DNA from: an uncultured Gemmatimonadales bacterium
GTDB lineage: Bacteria; Gemmatimonadota; Gemmatimonadetes; Gemmatimonadales; Gemmatimonadaceae
Assembly (NCBI GenBank): GCA_963701965.1
Contig: OY969695.1
Location: 4,704,001-4,768,000 of the forward strand
Length of the DNA stretch: 64,000 nucleotides
Direction of reading: 5' to 3'
The notes under the pieces were generated by a model. It was not told the DNA's origin. It did no database searches and saw only the letters and a list, made by a program, of their open reading frames with translations. Each line of letters opens with the position of its first letter. Position 1 is the first letter of the stretch. A program made the position numbers and the translations under genes. Shown piece by piece: positions 50,323 through 61,322 of the stretch.

Positions 50323-50399
50323 CGCCACAACGGGTGGGCGCACGGCCATCGTGGGTGCTAGCATACGAGAACCGTATTCTGGCACCCACGAGGCCTCTC

Positions 50400-51138
50400 A
50401 TGGATCGCGCGCATTTTTACGCTACAATGAACGGAGAAGGGACGCTCGACTACGAGCGCTACCTGAACACCAAGGTGTTGCTCTCCGCCCAGAAGGATTT
50501 CGCAGCGTTCTGCAATGCCGACGAGCTGCAATTTCAGATCGTCCATCAGGTCGAAGAGCTGTGGATGAAGCTGATCGGCTATACGCTCCTCGATATCAAT
50601 GACTATCTGCAGCAGGAGAACACCAACCGCATCGTCACGCTGTTTCGCCGCGTGCACCTCGCGCTCCGCCTCATGATCGAACAGCTGGCGCTGCTGGAGA
50701 CAATGTCGCCGCGGGAGTACCAGGAGATCCGCTTGCAGCTGGGGAACGGCAGCGGCCAGGAATCGCCCGGCTTCCGGACGATCATCAAGATGCCGGGACA
50801 TCTCTGGGAGTCGTTCAAGAGCGCCTATCTCGACCGCCACGGCCTCACTATCGAGAAGATCTACAACTCCGAATATGCGCACGGGGACGCCTACGTCGTC
50901 GCCGAGGCGCTCGCCGAATTCGACGAGCTGTTCCAGCGGTTCCGGTTCTGCCACATGCAATTGATCCAGCGCACGATCGGCTTCGGCGCCAAGTCACTCA
51001 AAGGCCGGCCCGTCGACCGGCTGGTGGAGGGCCAGAACGTCAAATTCTTCCCGGAGCTATGGGAGATCCGGAACCAGAATGACCGACGCGTGGGGCGGCC
51101 AGTACGGCGTCGTCCGGGACTCCCTGGGCGCGCACTGA
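50400..51138 (+). CDS. Tryptophan 2,3-dioxygenase-family protein (frameshift at about 51078)
   Basis: DYERYL, DELQFQIVHQVEELWMK, GSGQESPGF, FFPELWEIR; the likely true C-terminus MTDAWGGQYGVVRDSLGAH is in the +1 frame. Confidence 0.85.
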
Positions 51139-53256
51139 TCAGCGGAGCAGGTCGACGCGCCAGCTGAATTCCTCCGCCAGAGACCCGCTCCACCCCTCGC
51201 GGACGAACGCCAGGCGGCCGGTGCGGTCCAGGAACCAGGTCGTGGGGAACCCGCGAATCCCGATCCGTTCGACGTAGGCGTTGTCGACGAGAATCGGAAA
51301 TGACAGGTGTCGCCGCGCGACGAATTGCTCGGCGGCCGGCGGCTCGTCGAGATAGTCGACCGCGAGCACGACGACCGACGTGTCCTGGCGGATGCTCTCG
51401 TACCATCGCGCGAACTCCGGCATCTCGGCCACACATTCGGCGCACCAGGCGCCCCAGAAATGGAGTACCACGATCTTGCCGCGGACCGCGTCGCTGGTCA
51501 CCGTGCTGTCGCTGCCCAAGCGCGTCAGGTGGAAGGCGGGCACCAGCGCCGGCGTCCGCAGCCGGGACGCCGCGACCATCGCGCGGCGCCGCCGGCGGTC
51601 CTCGACGCTCAGGGAGTCCACGTACGCCGCGAAGTCGGGCGGCGCGCCGCCGCGCGCCGCGAAAAGGCGCCGCAGCGCATCGCCATTTCTGGTCCCGTCG
51701 AATCCGTGGTTGATGAGCTCCATCTGGTGGCCGGTCACATAGCGCTGCTGCGCCAACCGGCGCCGCCCATCCGCCTCGGCCACGCGTCCCATGTGGTAGT
51801 ACACGAGGGGATTGGCCGAGTCCGCGGACTTGGCCTCGGTGAGGAGGCGCCGCGCGTCGGCGATCCGTCCTTCGTTGAAGTACACCCACCCGAGCGCATC
51901 GCGCTCCTCACCGGTGAGCCGCGCCCACTCTTGCGCGCGCTGGAGCGGATTGAGGCGATCGAAGCGTGGCGCGAAATCCCGGTGGAAGATCGAATCCCCG
52001 CCGCGGGCCAGTCCCTCGGCGTACCGTAAGGCAATGCGACGGTCGGCGAGGGTCAGTGGCGCGAAGACGTACAACCACTGCGGGTTGGCGTTGTTGTAGC
52101 GTACCATGCCCTGCACGTTGCGCAGCACTTCGGCGCTAGAGACCGTCGAGTCGTGCGCCTCGCTGGCGAACAGCTCGAAATACGCGGCGCCCCGCATCAG
52201 GCTCTCGTGGTGCGTGGAGGGCTCCACGAAAGCCGAGAGGCGCGCCCGGTAGACGGACACGGTGTCCTTGGCCTTGCGCACGCGTTGCATGCGAAGATAG
52301 TCCGCGAAGGGACTTTCGGGGTGCTCTCGCAGGAGCCGATCGTGCAACGCCTGGGCGCGAGAGGTGTCGCCGAGCAGATCGTAGCCGTCCGCCGCGTGAA
52401 AGAGTGCGGATGCCGCTGCGTCGCGGCGGCCAAGCAACCCCGCGATGTCGTCGATGACCGCGGTCTGGGGTCTGTGGGCGCGGATGAGCGCCTGCCAGTA
52501 GTCCGAGTGGATGCCGGCGGCGTATGGCGCGTGCGCGGCGGCGCGGGCCAGGGCGGCTATGTCCCCGGTGTCGCTCATCCCCCGTCTGTCGTAGATGGCC
52601 TGGAAGTAGTCGGCGTCGACGTTGGTCGAGTCCAGCCGCCGCGCGGCCGCGAACGCGGCCTCGGCCCGGTCCCAGGTCGCCGAGTCGCCCGGGAGAAAGA
52701 ACGCCACTTGGCTCAGGGCCGCACCCTCCAGGGCGTACAGCTCCGCGGACTCCGGTACGCCCCGAAGTTGTCCCGAGTCGAGGGCCGCTACTGCCGCCGC
52801 GCCTCGCTGGTGCGTGAAGAGCGCGAAGGCGTAGGCCCAGAGGAAATCCGGCTCAGGCGATCCCCTGGTCGCTAGGGCGTGGCCGAGGGCAATCGCTTGG
52901 TAGTCATCGGGTCCCTCGGCGAGGGCCACGACGCGGGCAAACACGCGCCAGAGAGACGTCTTCGGGATCGAGTCAGCGGCGGCCAGGGCCTCGTCGGCCA
53001 GCCCGTACCGCGCCTCGTTGGCCACGAACCACGCCAGGAACTCAGGTGTCTTGGCCGTCTGGGGCGCCGCCAACCCGGCCCGGTAGCCCCCCTCGAAATC
53101 GTGCTGGAAGAACAGCGTCCGCAGGTCGGCGGCCGACTGGGCACCCGCCGGGAAAGCGAGAACCATCGCTGCGATTGCGGGAGCCACGGATTGGCCATAT
53201 CGTCTGAGGCTGCGGTGACGCGCTGGCCCAGACGTTACAGTTGTGACGGGGGTCAC
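51139..53256 (-). CDS. Secreted TPR-like protein with C-terminal TlpA-type thioredoxin domain
   Basis: Signal-like segment, DALGWVYF TPR, GKIVVLHFWGAWCAECVAEMP, GFPTTWFLDR; start uncertain. Confidence 0.8.
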   Translation of the reverse strand: MTPVTTVTSGPARHRSLRRYGQSVAPAIAAMVLAFPAGAQSAADLRTLFFQHDFEGGYRAGLAAPQTAKTPEFLAWFVANEARYGLADEALAAADSIPKTSLWRVFARVVALAEGPDDYQAIALGHALATRGSPEPDFLWAYAFALFTHQRGAAAVAALDSGQLRGVPESAELYALEGAALSQVAFFLPGDSATWDRAEAAFAAARRLDSTNVDADYFQAIYDRRGMSDTGDIAALARAAAHAPYAAGIHSDYWQALIRAHRPQTAVIDDIAGLLGRRDAAASALFHAADGYDLLGDTSRAQALHDRLLREHPESPFADYLRMQRVRKAKDTVSVYRARLSAFVEPSTHHESLMRGAAYFELFASEAHDSTVSSAEVLRNVQGMVRYNNANPQWLYVFAPLTLADRRIALRYAEGLARGGDSIFHRDFAPRFDRLNPLQRAQEWARLTGEERDALGWVYFNEGRIADARRLLTEAKSADSANPLVYYHMGRVAEADGRRRLAQQRYVTGHQMELINHGFDGTRNGDALRRLFAARGGAPPDFAAYVDSLSVEDRRRRRAMVAASRLRTPALVPAFHLTRLGSDSTVTSDAVRGKIVVLHFWGAWCAECVAEMPEFARWYESIRQDTSVVVLAVDYLDEPPAAEQFVARRHLSFPILVDNAYVERIGIRGFPTTWFLDRTGRLAFVREGWSGSLAEEFSWRVDLLR

Positions 53257-53352: not shown

Positions 53353-53845
53353 ATGGCATTCGACGCCTATCTCAACCTGCAGGGCATCACGGGCGAAGCG
53401 ACCCGCAAAGGCTTTGAAGGCTGGATCGAGATCGAGTCGTTCAGCTTCGGCGCCTCGAACCCCGTCAGCATCGGCACAGCCAGCACGGGCGCCGGCGCCG
53501 GCAAGGTGTCCTTGAGCTCCTTCAACACGCTGAAGCGCACGGATTCCTCGAGCCCGGTGCTCTTCCAAAAGTGTTGCTCGGGTCAGCACTTCGCGAAGGT
53601 CTCGCTGGCGTTGAACAAAGCGGGCGGCGACGCCGCCGTGAAGTTCTTGCAGTACGACTTCACCGAAGTGTTCGTCGACAGCATCCAGTGGTCCGGTTCG
53701 GGCGGGGGCGAGGAGACGCCGTCGGAGTCCCTGTCGTTCGCCTTCGCGTCGATCAACGTGACGTATACGCCGCAGAAGGTGACCGGCGAGGCGGGATCGG
53801 CCATTGTCGCCGGGTGGGACGTCAAGGCCAACAACAAGAATGTAA
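53353..53845 (+). CDS. hcp: Type VI secretion tube protein Hcp (orphan)
   Basis: YLNLQGITGE..WIEIESFSFG..GAGAGKV..KRTDSSSPVLF..PSESLSFAF..YTPQ..GWDVKAN. Probable extra base near 53839; as read, the ORF runs to 53904. Confidence 0.9.
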
Positions 53846-53920
53846 GCCGGGCGCCCGCACGGGCGCCTCATGGCCTGGCCGTCACGCTCCTTCCCGGGGC
53901 GTGACGGCTATGTTTTTGGG

Positions 53921-56895: not shown

Positions 56896-57010
56896 AAGCC
56901 CCGACTCCGGCTTGAGATGGGAGCGTGGGCCGCAATCGCTATACCCGCGCCGGCGCGCGCCGACGGTTCCGTGCAATTGGCGTGATGTCGCTCTTGGTCT
57001 ATGTTGTGGC

Positions 57011-57576
57011 GTGCACCGCGTACTCCGGCTCGCCAACCTCCTTCTCGCATCGCTGGGGCTCGTGGCGGGTGTCGCGCGTCCGGTGCAAGCGCAGGCCCGC
57101 GACTCGACCTACGACGATCACATCGACGCTGCCCAACGCGCCGACTCCGCGCGCGACACCGGCGCCGCCCACGCCCATCTGCTCCGCGCGTTGGCCCTGC
57201 TCCACGGCCACCCCGACATCGTGTAGCTGCTGGCCCGCAACGCCGTCCGCGGTGACGTGGCTCGCGCATCCGGATACGATCGCCGTGAGCGGCATCAATG
57301 GGATGTATCTCGTCGGCCACGCCCTGATCGCGATCCAGAACGGCGCCGACCCGGCGCGCATCGTCCGGCTCGATCTCGATGCGACGCTCCAACGCGTTGT
57401 CCGATGCACCCGTCATCGCGCGCGGCGCCAACTCACTCGGCCAACCCACGCACGGTGTGTTGGTGGACGGCGCGTTCTACTTTCTCGCCAACACCGGGTG
57501 GGACCGGTTTGGCGACGATGGCGCCATTAAGGGCGCCGGGACCCCCGCCCGGTTGGTGCGCGTCGACGAGCATTGA
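57011..57576 (+). pseudogene. Decayed secreted protein (SMP-30/gluconolactonase-like propeller C-terminus)
   Basis: Signal peptide, in-frame TAG at 57224-57226, jump at about 57250 to GINGMYL..LIAIQNGADPARIVR, and a further frameshift to PTHGVLVDGAFYFLANTGWD. Confidence 0.6.
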
Positions 57577-57606
57577 CAAATGCCGTGACGTGGTGAAAAT
57601 TCAGCA
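57573..57606 (+). promoter_or_regulatory. blaI promoter with putative operator GGTGAAAATTCAGCA
   Basis: TTGACA at 57573-57578; imperfect palindrome at 57592-57606 over the -10 region, repeated at 59983-59997. Confidence 0.6.
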
Positions 57607-57609
57607 CAC

Positions 57610-58002
57610 ATGGCCAAGACACGCGGGGAAGGCGCCCTCAGCCGGCGCGAGCGGCAGGTGATGGACATTCTGCATCGCCGGGGCGAGGCGACGGTCGCCG
57701 ATATCATGGACGAGCTGCCCGACCCGCCGACCTACTCGGCGGTCCGGTCGGTCCTGCGCATCCTTGGGCACAAGGACCTGGTCCGCTACAAGCAGGACGG
57801 GCCGCGCTACGTCTATCTCCCCGCGCTCCCGACCGAGCGGGCGCGGGACGCGGCGCTCGAGCACGTGGTCGACACCTACTTCGCCGGCTCGGCGGAGCAG
57901 GCGGTCACGGCGCTGCTCAAACTGTCGGATGCCGACTTGAGTATGCAGGATATCAATGCGCTGCGCGAGCAGATCCGGCGCGCGCGCGCCAATGGGAGGT
58001 GA
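57610..58002 (+). CDS. BlaI/MecI/CopY-family repressor
   Basis: LSRRERQVMDIL..ATVADI..PTYSAVRSVLRIL..KDLV..GPRYVY..VVDTYFAGS. Confidence 0.93.
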   Translation: MAKTRGEGALSRRERQVMDILHRRGEATVADIMDELPDPPTYSAVRSVLRILGHKDLVRYKQDGPRYVYLPALPTERARDAALEHVVDTYFAGSAEQAVTALLKLSDADLSMQDINALREQIRRARANGR

Positions 58003-58006
58003 TGCC

Positions 58007-59935
58007 GTGCCTGACTCCACCGTCGTGATGGTTCTGGGCAGGATCACGATCCTGCTCGTGTTGGCCTTTGCCGCCGCGACCCTGCTGCGCCGGTCGTCGG
58101 CCGGCGCGCGGTATCTCGTGTGGCTGGCGACCCTTGTCGGCGTCGTGCTCTTGCCCGCGGCCGCCGTGTGGGCGCCGGTGCGCGTGGCGGTGCTCCCGGC
58201 CGCCGTGGCGCCCTCACACGCGATCCGTCGGATGCCGGCTGTCGCCAACGTCTCGACAGAGACCGTGGCGGAGCCTACGGTCGCACCTGCGGTTGCTCCT
58301 GCGGCCCACGCCGCGCCGGCACGCCCGTCTCCATTCTGGATCCTCGGCGGTCTCTGGCTCGGGGCGATGCTGGCACTCGCCGCGCGATTGATTCACGGGA
58401 TGATCACCGTACGCCGGATCGCGCGCCGCGCGCGACCGCTCGAGACTCCCGAGTGGCGCGCCGCGCTGCTCGAGGTCTCCGATCGCTTGGGGCTCGAGGA
58501 GCCGCCCCGGCTCGTCCTGTCGGACGACGTCACGGTGCCGTTCGCCTGCGGCCTGCGACGGCCCACCGTCGTGTTGCCGGCGCCGGCCGCGGCGTGGACC
58601 GATGATCGCCGGCGCGCGGTCCTGTTGCACGAGTTGGCCCACGTGGGGCGCGGCGACATGATGGGACACCTGCTGAGCCGCATCGCCTGCGTGGTGTATT
58701 GGTTTCACCCGCTGGTGTGGACGGCGGCGCGGCGGCTGCGCGCCGAGAGCGAGCTGGCGTGCGACGATCTCGCTTTGCAGTCCGGGGCGCGGGCCAGCGA
58801 TTATGCGCAGCATCTGCTCGACATCGTGACGGGCATGCGTGGTCCGGCGACGCCCGCGGCGGCGGTCGCCATGGCGCGCCGCCGGGAGTTCGAGGGTCGC
58901 CTGCTCGCCATCCTCGATCCCGCCCGGGCGCGCGCCACGCCGAGCCGGATGCGCGCCGCGGCGCTGGTGGTGGGATTGGCCGCGGTGTACGGCGCGGTTG
59001 GTCTCGTGGTGTTGGGCCCCCGGTCCGCCGCCGCCGTGACGCCGCAGTCCGTGGCGATGACCGCGACTCCGGCCACGCCGGCGCGGCCGACGGCGGCTTC
59101 GCCCGCTTCGCCGCCCCCTTCGCCGGCCGCGGCGGCCCCACGCCCGGCGCGCGTCGCCAGCCCGGCGCGTCCCACACCCGCCCCGGTGGCCAGCGCGCCC
59201 GAACAGCCGTCGAGCGATTCGTCCGGCCGGCGCGTCACGCTGCTCGCCACGATCCTCCGGACCGATTCCAGCGCCGAGCTACGCAAAGTGGCGGCTTGGG
59301 GCCTGGAGCAGTTCGCCGAGTCCGACGCCGCCCGCGACGCGCTGGCCAAAGCGCTCCGCGGCGACGCCAGCGCCACGGTGCGCGAGATGGCGGCCTGGGC
59401 CCTGGAGAGCGCCAGCGGGGAACCTGGAACGTCCGCGCTGATCAACGCCATGACGAATGACCACGACCGGTCGGTCCGCTCCACGGCCGCGTGGGCGCTG
59501 GCCCACGAGTCGTCGCCCGCCGTCGTCCCCCTCTACGTGGCGGCGCTCCGGGACTCGAGCGCCGAGGTCCGCGCCACCGCGGCCTGGGCGATGGGGCAGA
59601 GTGATCTCGAGCACGCGCCACCGGGACTCATCGCCGCCATCGCCGACAAGGACCGGCACGTGCGCCTGGTGACCGTCTGGGCGCTGTCGCAGATCAAGGA
59701 CCCCGCTTCCGCGCCCGCGCTCACCGCCGCGCTGGAAAAGGAGACCGACGACGGCATGCGCGAGCATCTCGTCCGTGCGATCGCCTCAATGGGCGAAGGG
59801 TCTCCGGATGTCGTCGAGAAGTTGCTCGACTCTCCCGACCACGCCACCCGCGCGCTCGCCGTGCGCGAGCTGGCCGGCGACCACCAGGCCTCGGTGTGGC
59901 CGATGCCGTGGCCGCGCCCGCGCCCATTCCCCTGA
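58007..59935 (+). CDS. BlaR1-like M56 metallopeptidase with Pro/Ala linker and C-terminal HEAT repeats
   Basis: SAGARYLVW, VLLHELAHV, YWFHPLVW, ELACDD, DYAQHLL; (V)RxxAAWAL repeats; GGAGG RBS before GTG 58007. Confidence 0.92.
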   Translation: MPDSTVVMVLGRITILLVLAFAAATLLRRSSAGARYLVWLATLVGVVLLPAAAVWAPVRVAVLPAAVAPSHAIRRMPAVANVSTETVAEPTVAPAVAPAAHAAPARPSPFWILGGLWLGAMLALAARLIHGMITVRRIARRARPLETPEWRAALLEVSDRLGLEEPPRLVLSDDVTVPFACGLRRPTVVLPAPAAAWTDDRRRAVLLHELAHVGRGDMMGHLLSRIACVVYWFHPLVWTAARRLRAESELACDDLALQSGARASDYAQHLLDIVTGMRGPATPAAAVAMARRREFEGRLLAILDPARARATPSRMRAAALVVGLAAVYGAVGLVVLGPRSAAAVTPQSVAMTATPATPARPTAASPASPPPSPAAAAPRPARVASPARPTPAPVASAPEQPSSDSSGRRVTLLATILRTDSSAELRKVAAWGLEQFAESDAARDALAKALRGDASATVREMAAWALESASGEPGTSALINAMTNDHDRSVRSTAAWALAHESSPAVVPLYVAALRDSSAEVRATAAWAMGQSDLEHAPPGLIAAIADKDRHVRLVTVWALSQIKDPASAPALTAALEKETDDGMREHLVRAIASMGEGSPDVVEKLLDSPDHATRALAVRELAGDHQASVWPMPWPRPRPFP

Positions 59936-59982
59936 TGGCGAACCGGTAACGGCGTCACCCGACGCTGGCGCCTTGTCGTAGA

Positions 59983-59997
59983 TGCTGATTTTTCACC
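59983..59997. promoter_or_regulatory. Second copy of the putative BlaI operator
   Basis: TGCTGATTTTTCACC, 14/15 identical to the reverse complement of 57592-57606. Confidence 0.6.
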
Positions 59998-60014
59998 CGA
60001 CTCACGGAGTCCTG

Positions 60015-61322
60015 ATGCTGCCTGTGCTCGCCTCTCTCGCCCTGTGGTCCCAGAACGCGAGTGCGCCCATCGCGTCGTTGCTCGCGGCCGCGCACGGTGT
60101 CGCCCCGACGGTGTGCGCGCTGACGGCCGACGCCGTATGGTCCGGCAATCGGTTCGACGGCGCGGCACCCGTGACGCCGATCGGCGCCCAGGCCCGCGCC
60201 AACGTGCGCGACCTTCACGCCCGGCGTCTCGGCGACGCCAATGTGCGCGTCTTGATCGATAGTCTGGGGAGCACCGACGCGTGCGTCCGGGAGTTGGCGA
60301 TCCGCCTCGCCGGTGCCTCGCGCAGCAGCGTCGTCGCGCCGGCGTTGATCGAACGCCTGGCCTCGGCGTCGCCGGCAATGCGCGAAGTCGCCGCCTTCGG
60401 ATTGGGGTTGGTCGGATCCGAAACGGCCCCCCCAGCCGCGGTCGGTCCGCTGATCGGCGCCCTCCGCGATCGCAATGCGGCCGTCCGTGCCAATGCCGCG
60501 TGGGCGCTCGGCAACATCGAGGATGGCCGCGCCGTCAGGCCGCTGGTCGCGACACTCGGTGACGACAGTGCGGTGGTGCGCGAAGCCACGACGATCGCGC
60601 TCGGGCATCTCGACTCCGCGTCGGCGATTCCCGCGCTCATCGCCATCCTCCGGCGCGACCCGGTGCCGGACGTACGCCGCACGGCGGCCTGGGCGCTCGG
60701 CCAACTCGACGATGCTGGCGCCGATACCGCGCTCGTCGCCGTCCTCCAGCAGGAACGATCCGCCAGCGTCCGCGAGATGATTGTCTGGGCCATCGGCGAG
60801 CGGGAGGTGCATGCCGGGCCGGCCCTTGTCGGCGTGCTCAAGACCGACGCCACGGACGATGTGCGGGAGATGGCCGCGTGGGCCCTGGGACAAATCGGGG
60901 AGGCGGCCGCCACGGATGCGCTGGGGCAAGCGGCGGCGGGCGATCGCGACCCGAAGGTCCGCGGTGCGGCTGCCTGGGCCTTGGGTCAGATCGAGCCCCA
61001 CCCGGCACCCGCCGGACTGACGCACGCATTGGGCGACGCCGACGAGGATGTGCGCCAGCGGGCCGCTTGGGCGCTGTCTCAGATTGGCGACCCGCACACC
61101 GTGCCCGCCATCCAAGCCGCGCTCCGCCAGGAGCAGTCGTCCAATGTGCGGAAGGCGCTCGTGCGCGCGATGATCCGCTCGGGCGCGCACTCCGAAGAGG
61201 CCCTCGCCGATCTGCTGCGTTCGTCCGATCCGGCCGTCCGCAAGGCGGCCATCCGCGGCCTCGCCGGGGCTAGCAACGACCCGTGGCCGTGGCCCTGGCC
61301 CCGCCCGCGGCCGTTTCCGTGA
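60015..61322 (+). CDS. Exported HEAT-repeat (PBS-lyase-like) protein
   Basis: GGAG RBS at 60006-60009, short signal-like N-terminus, about ten VRxxAAWALG repeats. Confidence 0.88.
   Translation: MLPVLASLALWSQNASAPIASLLAAAHGVAPTVCALTADAVWSGNRFDGAAPVTPIGAQARANVRDLHARRLGDANVRVLIDSLGSTDACVRELAIRLAGASRSSVVAPALIERLASASPAMREVAAFGLGLVGSETAPPAAVGPLIGALRDRNAAVRANAAWALGNIEDGRAVRPLVATLGDDSAVVREATTIALGHLDSASAIPALIAILRRDPVPDVRRTAAWALGQLDDAGADTALVAVLQQERSASVREMIVWAIGEREVHAGPALVGVLKTDATDDVREMAAWALGQIGEAAATDALGQAAAGDRDPKVRGAAAWALGQIEPHPAPAGLTHALGDADEDVRQRAAWALSQIGDPHTVPAIQAALRQEQSSNVRKALVRAMIRSGAHSEEALADLLRSSDPAVRKAAIRGLAGASNDPWPWPWPRPRPFP

Follow-up and report, generated by a model that had tools for sequence, protein, structure and literature searches.

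A BlaI/M56 operon of Gemmatimonadaceae with HEAT-repeat solenoids and a shared tryptophan/proline tail: a candidate switch for outside peptides

In a 64,000-nucleotide (nt) stretch of the genome of an uncultured Gemmatimonadales bacterium (contig OY969695.1, positions 4,704,001 to 4,768,000; hereafter "the window"), three consecutive genes encode a BlaI-type repressor, a BlaR1-like M56 membrane metalloprotease with a C-terminal HEAT-repeat solenoid, and an exported soluble paralog of that solenoid. Both HEAT proteins end in nearly the same tail of alternating residue-proline pairs. The reading we favor, with about as much doubt as confidence, is that this is a BlaI/BlaR1-type switch, in which the tail plugs the groove of its own solenoid and an outside peptide displaces the plug, inducing the soluble copy and exported hydrolases. 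The parts of this reading that come from sequence are the gene order, an intact zinc motif, a ladder of tryptophans at a binding-face position of the solenoid, the invariant tail and two operators.

The tailed module and its operators

The M56 protein ends in WPMPWPRPRPFP and a stop codon (tail 1, 59897..59935, + strand), and the soluble protein in WPWPWPRPRPFP and a stop codon (tail 2, 61284..61322, + strand), both read from the sequence and both of the W(xP)6 type. As the original prediction, made from the letters of the window, had claimed, 11 of the 12 residues are identical while six of the 11 shared codons differ synonymously; 31 of the 39 nucleotides match. The prediction took this to mean selection on the peptide and no recent copying of DNA. 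A quick tree of 60 solenoids built without the tail agrees: the window's soluble solenoid lies in a 25-member soluble clade (Shimodaira-Hasegawa-like approximate likelihood ratio test, SH-aLRT, 96), its M56 partner groups with other M56 domains, and the two thus sort with their own kind across the order. Judged from this tree, the duplication that yielded the two tailed solenoids is old. The C-terminal solenoids of the two proteins are 41% identical over 213 amino acids (aa), with the register kept as far as the tail, which they accordingly have by common descent, through duplication of the whole module.

The domain assignments of the prediction held up throughout. The repressor gene (57610..58002, + strand; 130 aa) matches PF03965 with 90.7 bits at a curated cut-off of 22.6. 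The M56 gene (58007..59935, + strand; 642 aa, likely start codon GTG 58007) matches PF05569 with 134 bits, followed by HEAT_2. Its zinc motif, HELAH (58628..58642, + strand), provides H208, E209 and H212, which, like E249 and D253, are invariant in an alignment of 78 sequences, R298 being present in at least 90% of them; the M56 peptidase signature of HExxH, ExxxD and a downstream Arg is thus complete. The model of the protein contains four hydrophobic helices (residues 4-26, 32-54, 109-141 and 314-336) in the BlaR1 order, and by analogy the topology may be the same. BlaR1 itself was not among the fold matches listed for this model, lists that the HEAT part filled. Residues 405-622 form a HEAT solenoid at the place where BlaR1 and MecR1 have their penicillin-binding (class D-like) domain, the replacement that had been predicted, and the BlaR1/MecR1 profiles score far under their cut-offs (NF000326, 92.5 against 400 bits; NF033109, 19 against 1200). 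This sensor solenoid (59219..59872, + strand) has seven alphaRep-like repeats and a ladder of tryptophans, W431, W464, W496, W527 and W558.

The soluble HEAT protein (60015..61322, + strand; 435 aa, likely start codon ATG 60015) matches HEAT_2 alone and has a signal-like N-terminus. It contains 11 repeats, a Cys34/Cys90 pair and a ladder consisting of W226, W258, W289, W321 and W352, plus W163. A hydrophobic N-terminal stretch is found in 41 of 43 loci and the Cys pair in 36 of 43, features that are consistent with export. The order blaI, M56-HEAT, soluble HEAT is kept in the fetched loci.

The strict motif WPxPWPxPxP occurs only in the two tails when all six frames of the 5.1-Mb genome are searched. 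Conservation in orthologs, on which the original prediction depended, is high: WPxPxPxPxP lies within the last 40 residues of 118 of the 120 best homologs of the soluble protein, and WPxPxPxP is found in 116 of the 118 best matches to the M56 HEAT region (the two exceptions carry longer, Trp-free (xP)9-10 tails), though both queries included the tail and the counts are therefore skewed towards tail-bearers. In the soluble protein, the mean modal frequency of the tail is 0.95 versus 0.70 elsewhere, which makes it the top 12-aa window of the protein; in the M56 protein, the values are 0.88 and 0.70.

Of 401 genomes of the phylum, 66 match a pattern made up of the tail and a stop codon. Thirty-five of the 401 have two such matches on one strand, spaced 1.2-1.7 kb apart, and all belong to two families within the order of the window; the source names of the homologs are Gemmatimonadaceae or Gemmatimonadales. 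In the phylum of an Acidobacteriota record, one of 301 genomes matched at E 1e-30. The acidobacterial locus L372 contains blaI, an M56 gene with nine ladder tryptophans and a ten-pair tail, and a short tail-less soluble protein; in locus L254, the tail is present on the soluble protein only and the M56 protein is tail-less. A loose pattern scan across GTDB, which sets no taxonomic range, returned six real HEAT tails among the 123 matches listed (122 loci), the others being off-frame and GC-rich. Every tail among the matches listed in a broader search of representative genomes, dominated by generic long HEAT proteins, sat on an M56-HEAT or a soluble HEAT protein, and no tail on a longer fusion (763-2175 aa) was found among 61 candidates, a result of little weight.

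Transcription of blaI is predicted to start from a σ70-type promoter (57573..57600, + strand; -35 TTGACA, -10 GAAAAT), whose TTGAC is equally spaced in many orthologous loci. Its -10 element is covered by a palindrome, TGGTGA-AAAT-TCAGCA (operator 1, 57591..57606), which has the best position weight matrix score in the genome, 26.3. The second-best score, 20.4, belongs to TGCTGA-TTTT-TCACCC (operator 2, 59983..59998), located 16 nt 5' of the start of the soluble HEAT gene. The consensus is TGYTGA-N4-TCARCA. Among tailed loci, 43 of the 44 that have upstream DNA contain operator 1, and 43 of 45 contain operator 2; no further site was found in 547,519 bases. In the window's genome, these two are the only sites scoring above 16 with the matrix, which was built from the palindrome; since shuffled genomes also give one to four such sites, operator 2 rests on its conservation. 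By the same measure, operator 1 appears to be a genuine BlaI-family operator placed over the repressor's own promoter. Because a conserved operator precedes its gene, the soluble protein is, as far as sequence can tell, a directly regulated effector, one of the roles that had been proposed for it.

The tryptophan ladder and the placement of the tail

Both solenoids show the hallmarks of alphaRep/PBS-lyase HEAT-like repeats, namely the two-helix repeat, the VRxxAAxALG consensus and the alphaRep fold, and the nearest solved structures are alphaRep proteins (4zv6, Z 28.7, root-mean-square deviation 2.4 over 277 residues). When the repeats are aligned to bGFP-A and to the position table in PMC3754942, the Trp of AAWALG falls on alphaRep variable position 26. 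According to the same source, the variable positions are 18, 19, 22, 23, 26 and 30, and position 26 lies on the concave binding face. In both proteins, five repeats in a row carry the ladder Trp at 100% and the last two have none; Arg21 is conserved at 98-100% alongside it.

The fetched loci, to which a tail-free N-terminal cap query had added sister operons, provided 178 HEAT proteins for comparison. Of these, 108 have tails with at least five alternating pairs. The ladder numbers at least four tryptophans in 106 of the 108. At least four are also present in 11 of the 70 tail-less proteins (two of the 11 being frameshifted genes), while the other 59 mostly have acidic or polar residues at the ladder position. 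In a quick 87-row tree of M56 proteins, from which rows that did not pass the motif filter and two loci with frameshifts were excluded, one gain and one loss explain the tail, both inside a lineage that already had the ladder; the ladder thus predates the tail, to judge from this tree. Longer ladders go with longer tails (eight Trp with 7-9 pairs, nine Trp with 9-10 pairs), and across 48 operons the length of the soluble tail correlates with its own ladder (rho 0.57) and not with that of its partner (rho -0.01).

Two further groups of relatives were noted. Tail-less blaI-M56-HEAT/HEAT operons with an acidic or polar position 26 form a separate clade (L221, L225, L238, L239, L246-L248, L250-L252, L256, L257, L259-L261, L264, L266-L270 and L272), which probably reads a different ligand. 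In L220, L222, L223 and L224, soluble Trp-ladder HEAT proteins end in other alternating tails (Met-Pro runs, His/Arg/Lys-Val pairs), which suggests a common groove with a different plug.

AlphaFold2 models both solenoids confidently. In the structural alignment of the M56 model, the tail is reached, at residues 638-641 of 642, by six of 50 rows. The titles of five of these chains describe designed armadillo proteins joined to the peptide that they bind; the remaining chain, 6sa7, probably corresponds to the C-terminal (KR)5 fusion of PMC6838082, a paper that does not map codes to constructs. In the other 44 rows, among which are one N-terminal fusion and unfused versions of the same scaffolds, the alignment ends at or before residue 629 and covers about 10-14 fewer residues than for fusions on the same scaffold. 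For the soluble model, one fusion among 50 rows reaches residue 435, while the others end at or before 421. Both models have two helices per repeat, not the three of armadillo repeats, and alphaRep outscores armadillo. The models indicate that the tail may lie back along the concave face of its own solenoid, with about one X-Pro pair per repeat. Together with the position of the ladder on the binding face, they favor the predicted role of the tail as a ligand of the HEAT groove.

The regulon in relatives and the weighing of explanations

A gene for a protein with a CBM9-like domain and DUF5916 adjoins the system in 26 of 51 loci, 25 times on the same strand after the soluble gene and once divergent from blaI. 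From its signal-like start and terminal aromatic motif, the product is predicted to be an outer-membrane protein; no solved relative and no Atlas model of DUF5916 were found. Exact operator matches in system-bearing genomes, among the matches listed, provided 23 distal sites for inspection. Nine of them precede further CBM9-DUF5916 genes (six by Pfam, three by eye) and six precede genes of exported SxxK hydrolases of PF00144, a family that we take to include peptidases cleaving D-amino-acid peptides; three of the six are in genus-mates and have TTGAC 18 nt upstream. M1 peptidase (aminopeptidase)-like genes, near or under the Pfam cut-off, follow three sites, and an amidohydrolase gene, a truncated prolyl-aminopeptidase-like gene and another blaI follow one each. 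The last two sites, each with a double operator and a -35 element, precede a gene for a 239-aa exported protein (L296:4108-4824 and L348:3588-4304) that has no Pfam match.

The operator-linked PF00144 enzymes are only 24-32% identical between groups, which suggests that such enzymes were recruited to the operator repeatedly. The three that were scanned score far below the class C, AmpH and D-aminopeptidase cut-offs and reach no named-family cut-off. No beta-lactamase or PBP2a gene lies under the operator in the window's genome. Peptidases that cleave peptide antibiotics containing D-amino acids are described in PMC9231227. The hydrolases lend indirect support to peptide sensing, which the original prediction had listed as one possibility.

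Several candidate targets were rejected. In L297, a gene of the S15 (X-Pro dipeptidyl-peptidase) family lies divergently next to an operator, but the -35 faces the opposite way, as it does at a dienelactone hydrolase gene in L330; neither was counted. Eight exact matches in genomes without the tail pattern (no -35 in the seven tested, one under the score threshold) were taken as background.

On the favored reading, each tail would fold into its own Trp-lined groove as a built-in plug, as the models suggest. An extended peptide from outside, presumably rich in Pro, Arg and aromatic residues and derived from food or an antimicrobial, would displace the plug and likely trigger cleavage of BlaI; loss of BlaI would induce the secreted copy and the exported hydrolases. 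The soluble copy could then serve as an induced periplasmic sink or shuttle for the ligand, with negative feedback, the CBM9-DUF5916 protein might be its outer-membrane partner, and the hydrolases might destroy the ligand. A bolder version, possible in our view yet doubtful, is that of a natural bacterial (X-Pro)n reader: an autoinhibited HEAT solenoid, with a length-matched tail as its yardstick for counting dipeptides, wired to a membrane protease and controlling a dedicated route for capture and destruction of proline-rich or antibiotic peptides through the DUF5916 outer-membrane protein, the periplasmic solenoid shuttle and the recruited peptidases.

A number of observations weigh against the plugged-groove switch. 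Its weakest step is coupling, since a disordered 65-residue linker (predicted local distance difference test, pLDDT, 36-46) separates the last membrane helix from the solenoid; with such a linker, coupling would probably proceed by a change of partner (the first outside loop or the other protomer) and not by a lever. Confidence in the tail itself is moderate (pLDDT 54-57 in the soluble protein, 64-70 in the M56 protein), its placement was read from alignment end points, which are not contacts, and single-chain models are able to show binding in cis only, so that swapping is compatible with them. Tail-less ladders exist (eight M56 rows of the tree), and with the tail gained about once and lost once in the ladder lineage, the co-occurrence of ladder and tail reflects about one event and is not independent evidence. 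The scaling of tail length is driven by few clades, and the M56 tail hardly follows its own ladder (rho 0.12 in the 48 operons). The window's genome has no distal operator, its own DUF5916 and PF00144 paralogs lacking one, so that the link to hydrolases comes from relatives only. Finally, a glycan is a conceivable ligand in view of the CBM9-like domain.

We also considered the first outside loop of the M56 protein as a self-ligand specific to ladder proteins. Its conserved WxPxRxxVLP-like start is also found in a ladder-less M56 protein (L232) and, loosely, in the other M56 protein of the window's genome; it is thus not specific and was not used as evidence.

A tail that permanently braces the exposed ladder, or shields it from proteases, and is never displaced, the signal being sensed elsewhere, seems unlikely. 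Such a role would fit the placement of the tail in cis and its inheritance together with the solenoid by both paralogs, but Trp ladders exist without a tail, some of them with 10-14 Trp, position 26 is the binding face in alphaRep proteins, and a blocked groove would leave a seven-repeat sensor little other conserved surface.

An exchange of tails in trans, the soluble protein docking on the membrane sensor, or protomers docking on each other, as an anti-sensor feedback, is somewhat less probable still. Grooves and tails of the two proteins are near-identical, the tails occur together as same-strand pairs in the 35 genomes counted above, and BlaR1 is a domain-swapped dimer (PMC9834060). However, the one-tailed operons L254 (soluble protein only) and L372 (M56 only) speak against an obligate exchange, as does the soluble tail following its own ladder and not that of its partner.

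We see rather little chance that the tail plugs the groove and is pushed out by a glycan, such as a beta-linked chain that stacks on the ladder and for which DUF5916 would be the channel. Aromatic ladders do bind glycans, and the commonest member of the regulon, both adjacent and distal, has a CBM9-like domain; the built-in mimic, though, is a peptide, and the enzymes at the 23 inspected distal sites are of peptidase, esterase or amidohydrolase families, with no glycoside hydrolase among them.

In C-terminal sorting signals of the LPXTG or PEP-CTERM type, a membrane helix and basic residues come after the motif, and ribosome-arrest peptides stall at a fixed codon and regulate a coupled downstream gene. 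A sorting, proteolysis or arrest tag unconnected with the groove, as entertained by the original prediction, is very improbable: the tail does stand at the extreme C-terminus, ending in Pro, in 33 of 42 M56 and 39 of 43 soluble proteins, but the others (9 of 42 and 4 of 43) run on beyond the last Pro by 1-11 residues, the stop comes within 0-11 residues with neither a membrane helix nor a basic end before it, the stop position is not fixed, all three stop codons are used, codon use for tail Pro is that of the gene body, no other protein of the window's genome carries the tail, and the downstream gene has its own operator and needs no translational coupling.

Surroundings, significance and known systems

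A cyclopropane fatty-acid synthase-like gene (PF02353; 61270-62874 of the window, - strand) converges on the soluble HEAT gene; this neighbor is not conserved. Directly 5' of blaI (57000-57570, + strand) lie short broken frames resembling remnants of one exported-protein gene. Farther upstream are open reading frames that, inspected by eye, we take to encode a lone Hcp-type tube protein (53353-53904, + strand) and, presumably, a tryptophan 2,3-dioxygenase (50334-51167, + strand).

Outside the window, the sensor encoded at a second blaI-M56 locus (G000:C1:2588900-2592900, L274) is built of helical repeats of another kind, which recur in the next gene, a lipoprotein-like one; the locus has a palindrome of its own in front, TGCTAG-N4-CTAGCA. 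Here, too, the sensor domain has a copy in the form of a free protein. The M56 gene of this locus is split over two frames near the start and holds a long 15-nt tandem repeat.

No published work describing this system or joining BlaI, M56 and a HEAT repeat, and none on DUF5916, was found in a search that was sparse in subscription journals and excluded supplements. The operator pair, the regulon, the history of the ladder and the model evidence were newly worked out here, and the operators, the duplication of the whole solenoid and the tail-less Trp-ladder relatives go beyond the original prediction. BlaI/M56 pairs are widespread, and their signals outside beta-lactam sensing are mostly unknown. 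In the present system, operator and regulon are defined and a mimic of the ligand is built in, so the question of the ligand is directly testable. If the plug model is true, nature would have its own equivalent of the designed binders of repeat peptides, here for X-Pro repeats of two residues, which PMC10115654 describes as harder design targets than three-residue repeats; the system would also link DUF5916, an unstudied family, with the handling of peptides in a phylum that is abundant in soil. Should the (X-Pro)n-reader view be true, it would give DUF5916 its first function and supply a natural scaffold for binders of polyproline-II dipeptide repeats.

Of the known systems, BlaI/BlaR1 and MecI/MecR1 of Staphylococcus aureus (PMC9834060 and PMC7593790) are alike in the BlaI-family repressor, the M56 protease with HExxH...E, the C-terminal sensor, and the repressor sites (here predicted) before their own operon and a separate effector gene; four membrane helices with the sensor outside may be a further likeness, going by the model and by analogy. 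A self segment occupies the sensor site there: according to PMC9834060, a loop of BlaR1 sits in it competitively and is excluded by the ligand; here, the candidate self-ligand is the C-terminal tail. The differences are the alphaRep-like HEAT sensor, an effector that is a paralog of the sensor domain, another operator and a Gram-negative host. Since the penicillin-binding sensor is missing, the system would work like BlaI/BlaR1 but is not a BlaR1. Pseudomonas PvmSR and the mycobacterial BlaR (sensor-less BlaIR; bioRxiv 10.64898/2026.08.03.742534) likewise use BlaI and M56 outside beta-lactam sensing; they have no outside sensor domain, whereas the present system has a large sensor and a soluble copy of it. 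The alphaRep/PBS-lyase HEAT-like proteins share the repeat and are the best sequence and fold matches (PMC3754942), but position 26 is here a Trp fixed in five repeats, and the solenoids are natural, exported, protease-fused and equipped with a dipeptide-repeat tail. Importin-alpha and the designed armadillo binders (PMC6838082 and PMC10115654) hold an extended peptide along a solenoid groove at about one dipeptide per repeat, as the models suggest for the tail, which superposes to the end of the C-terminally fused peptides; they differ in having three-helix repeats instead of two-helix HEAT repeats, with 16-21% identity, and in reading Lys-Arg instead of X-Pro pairs.

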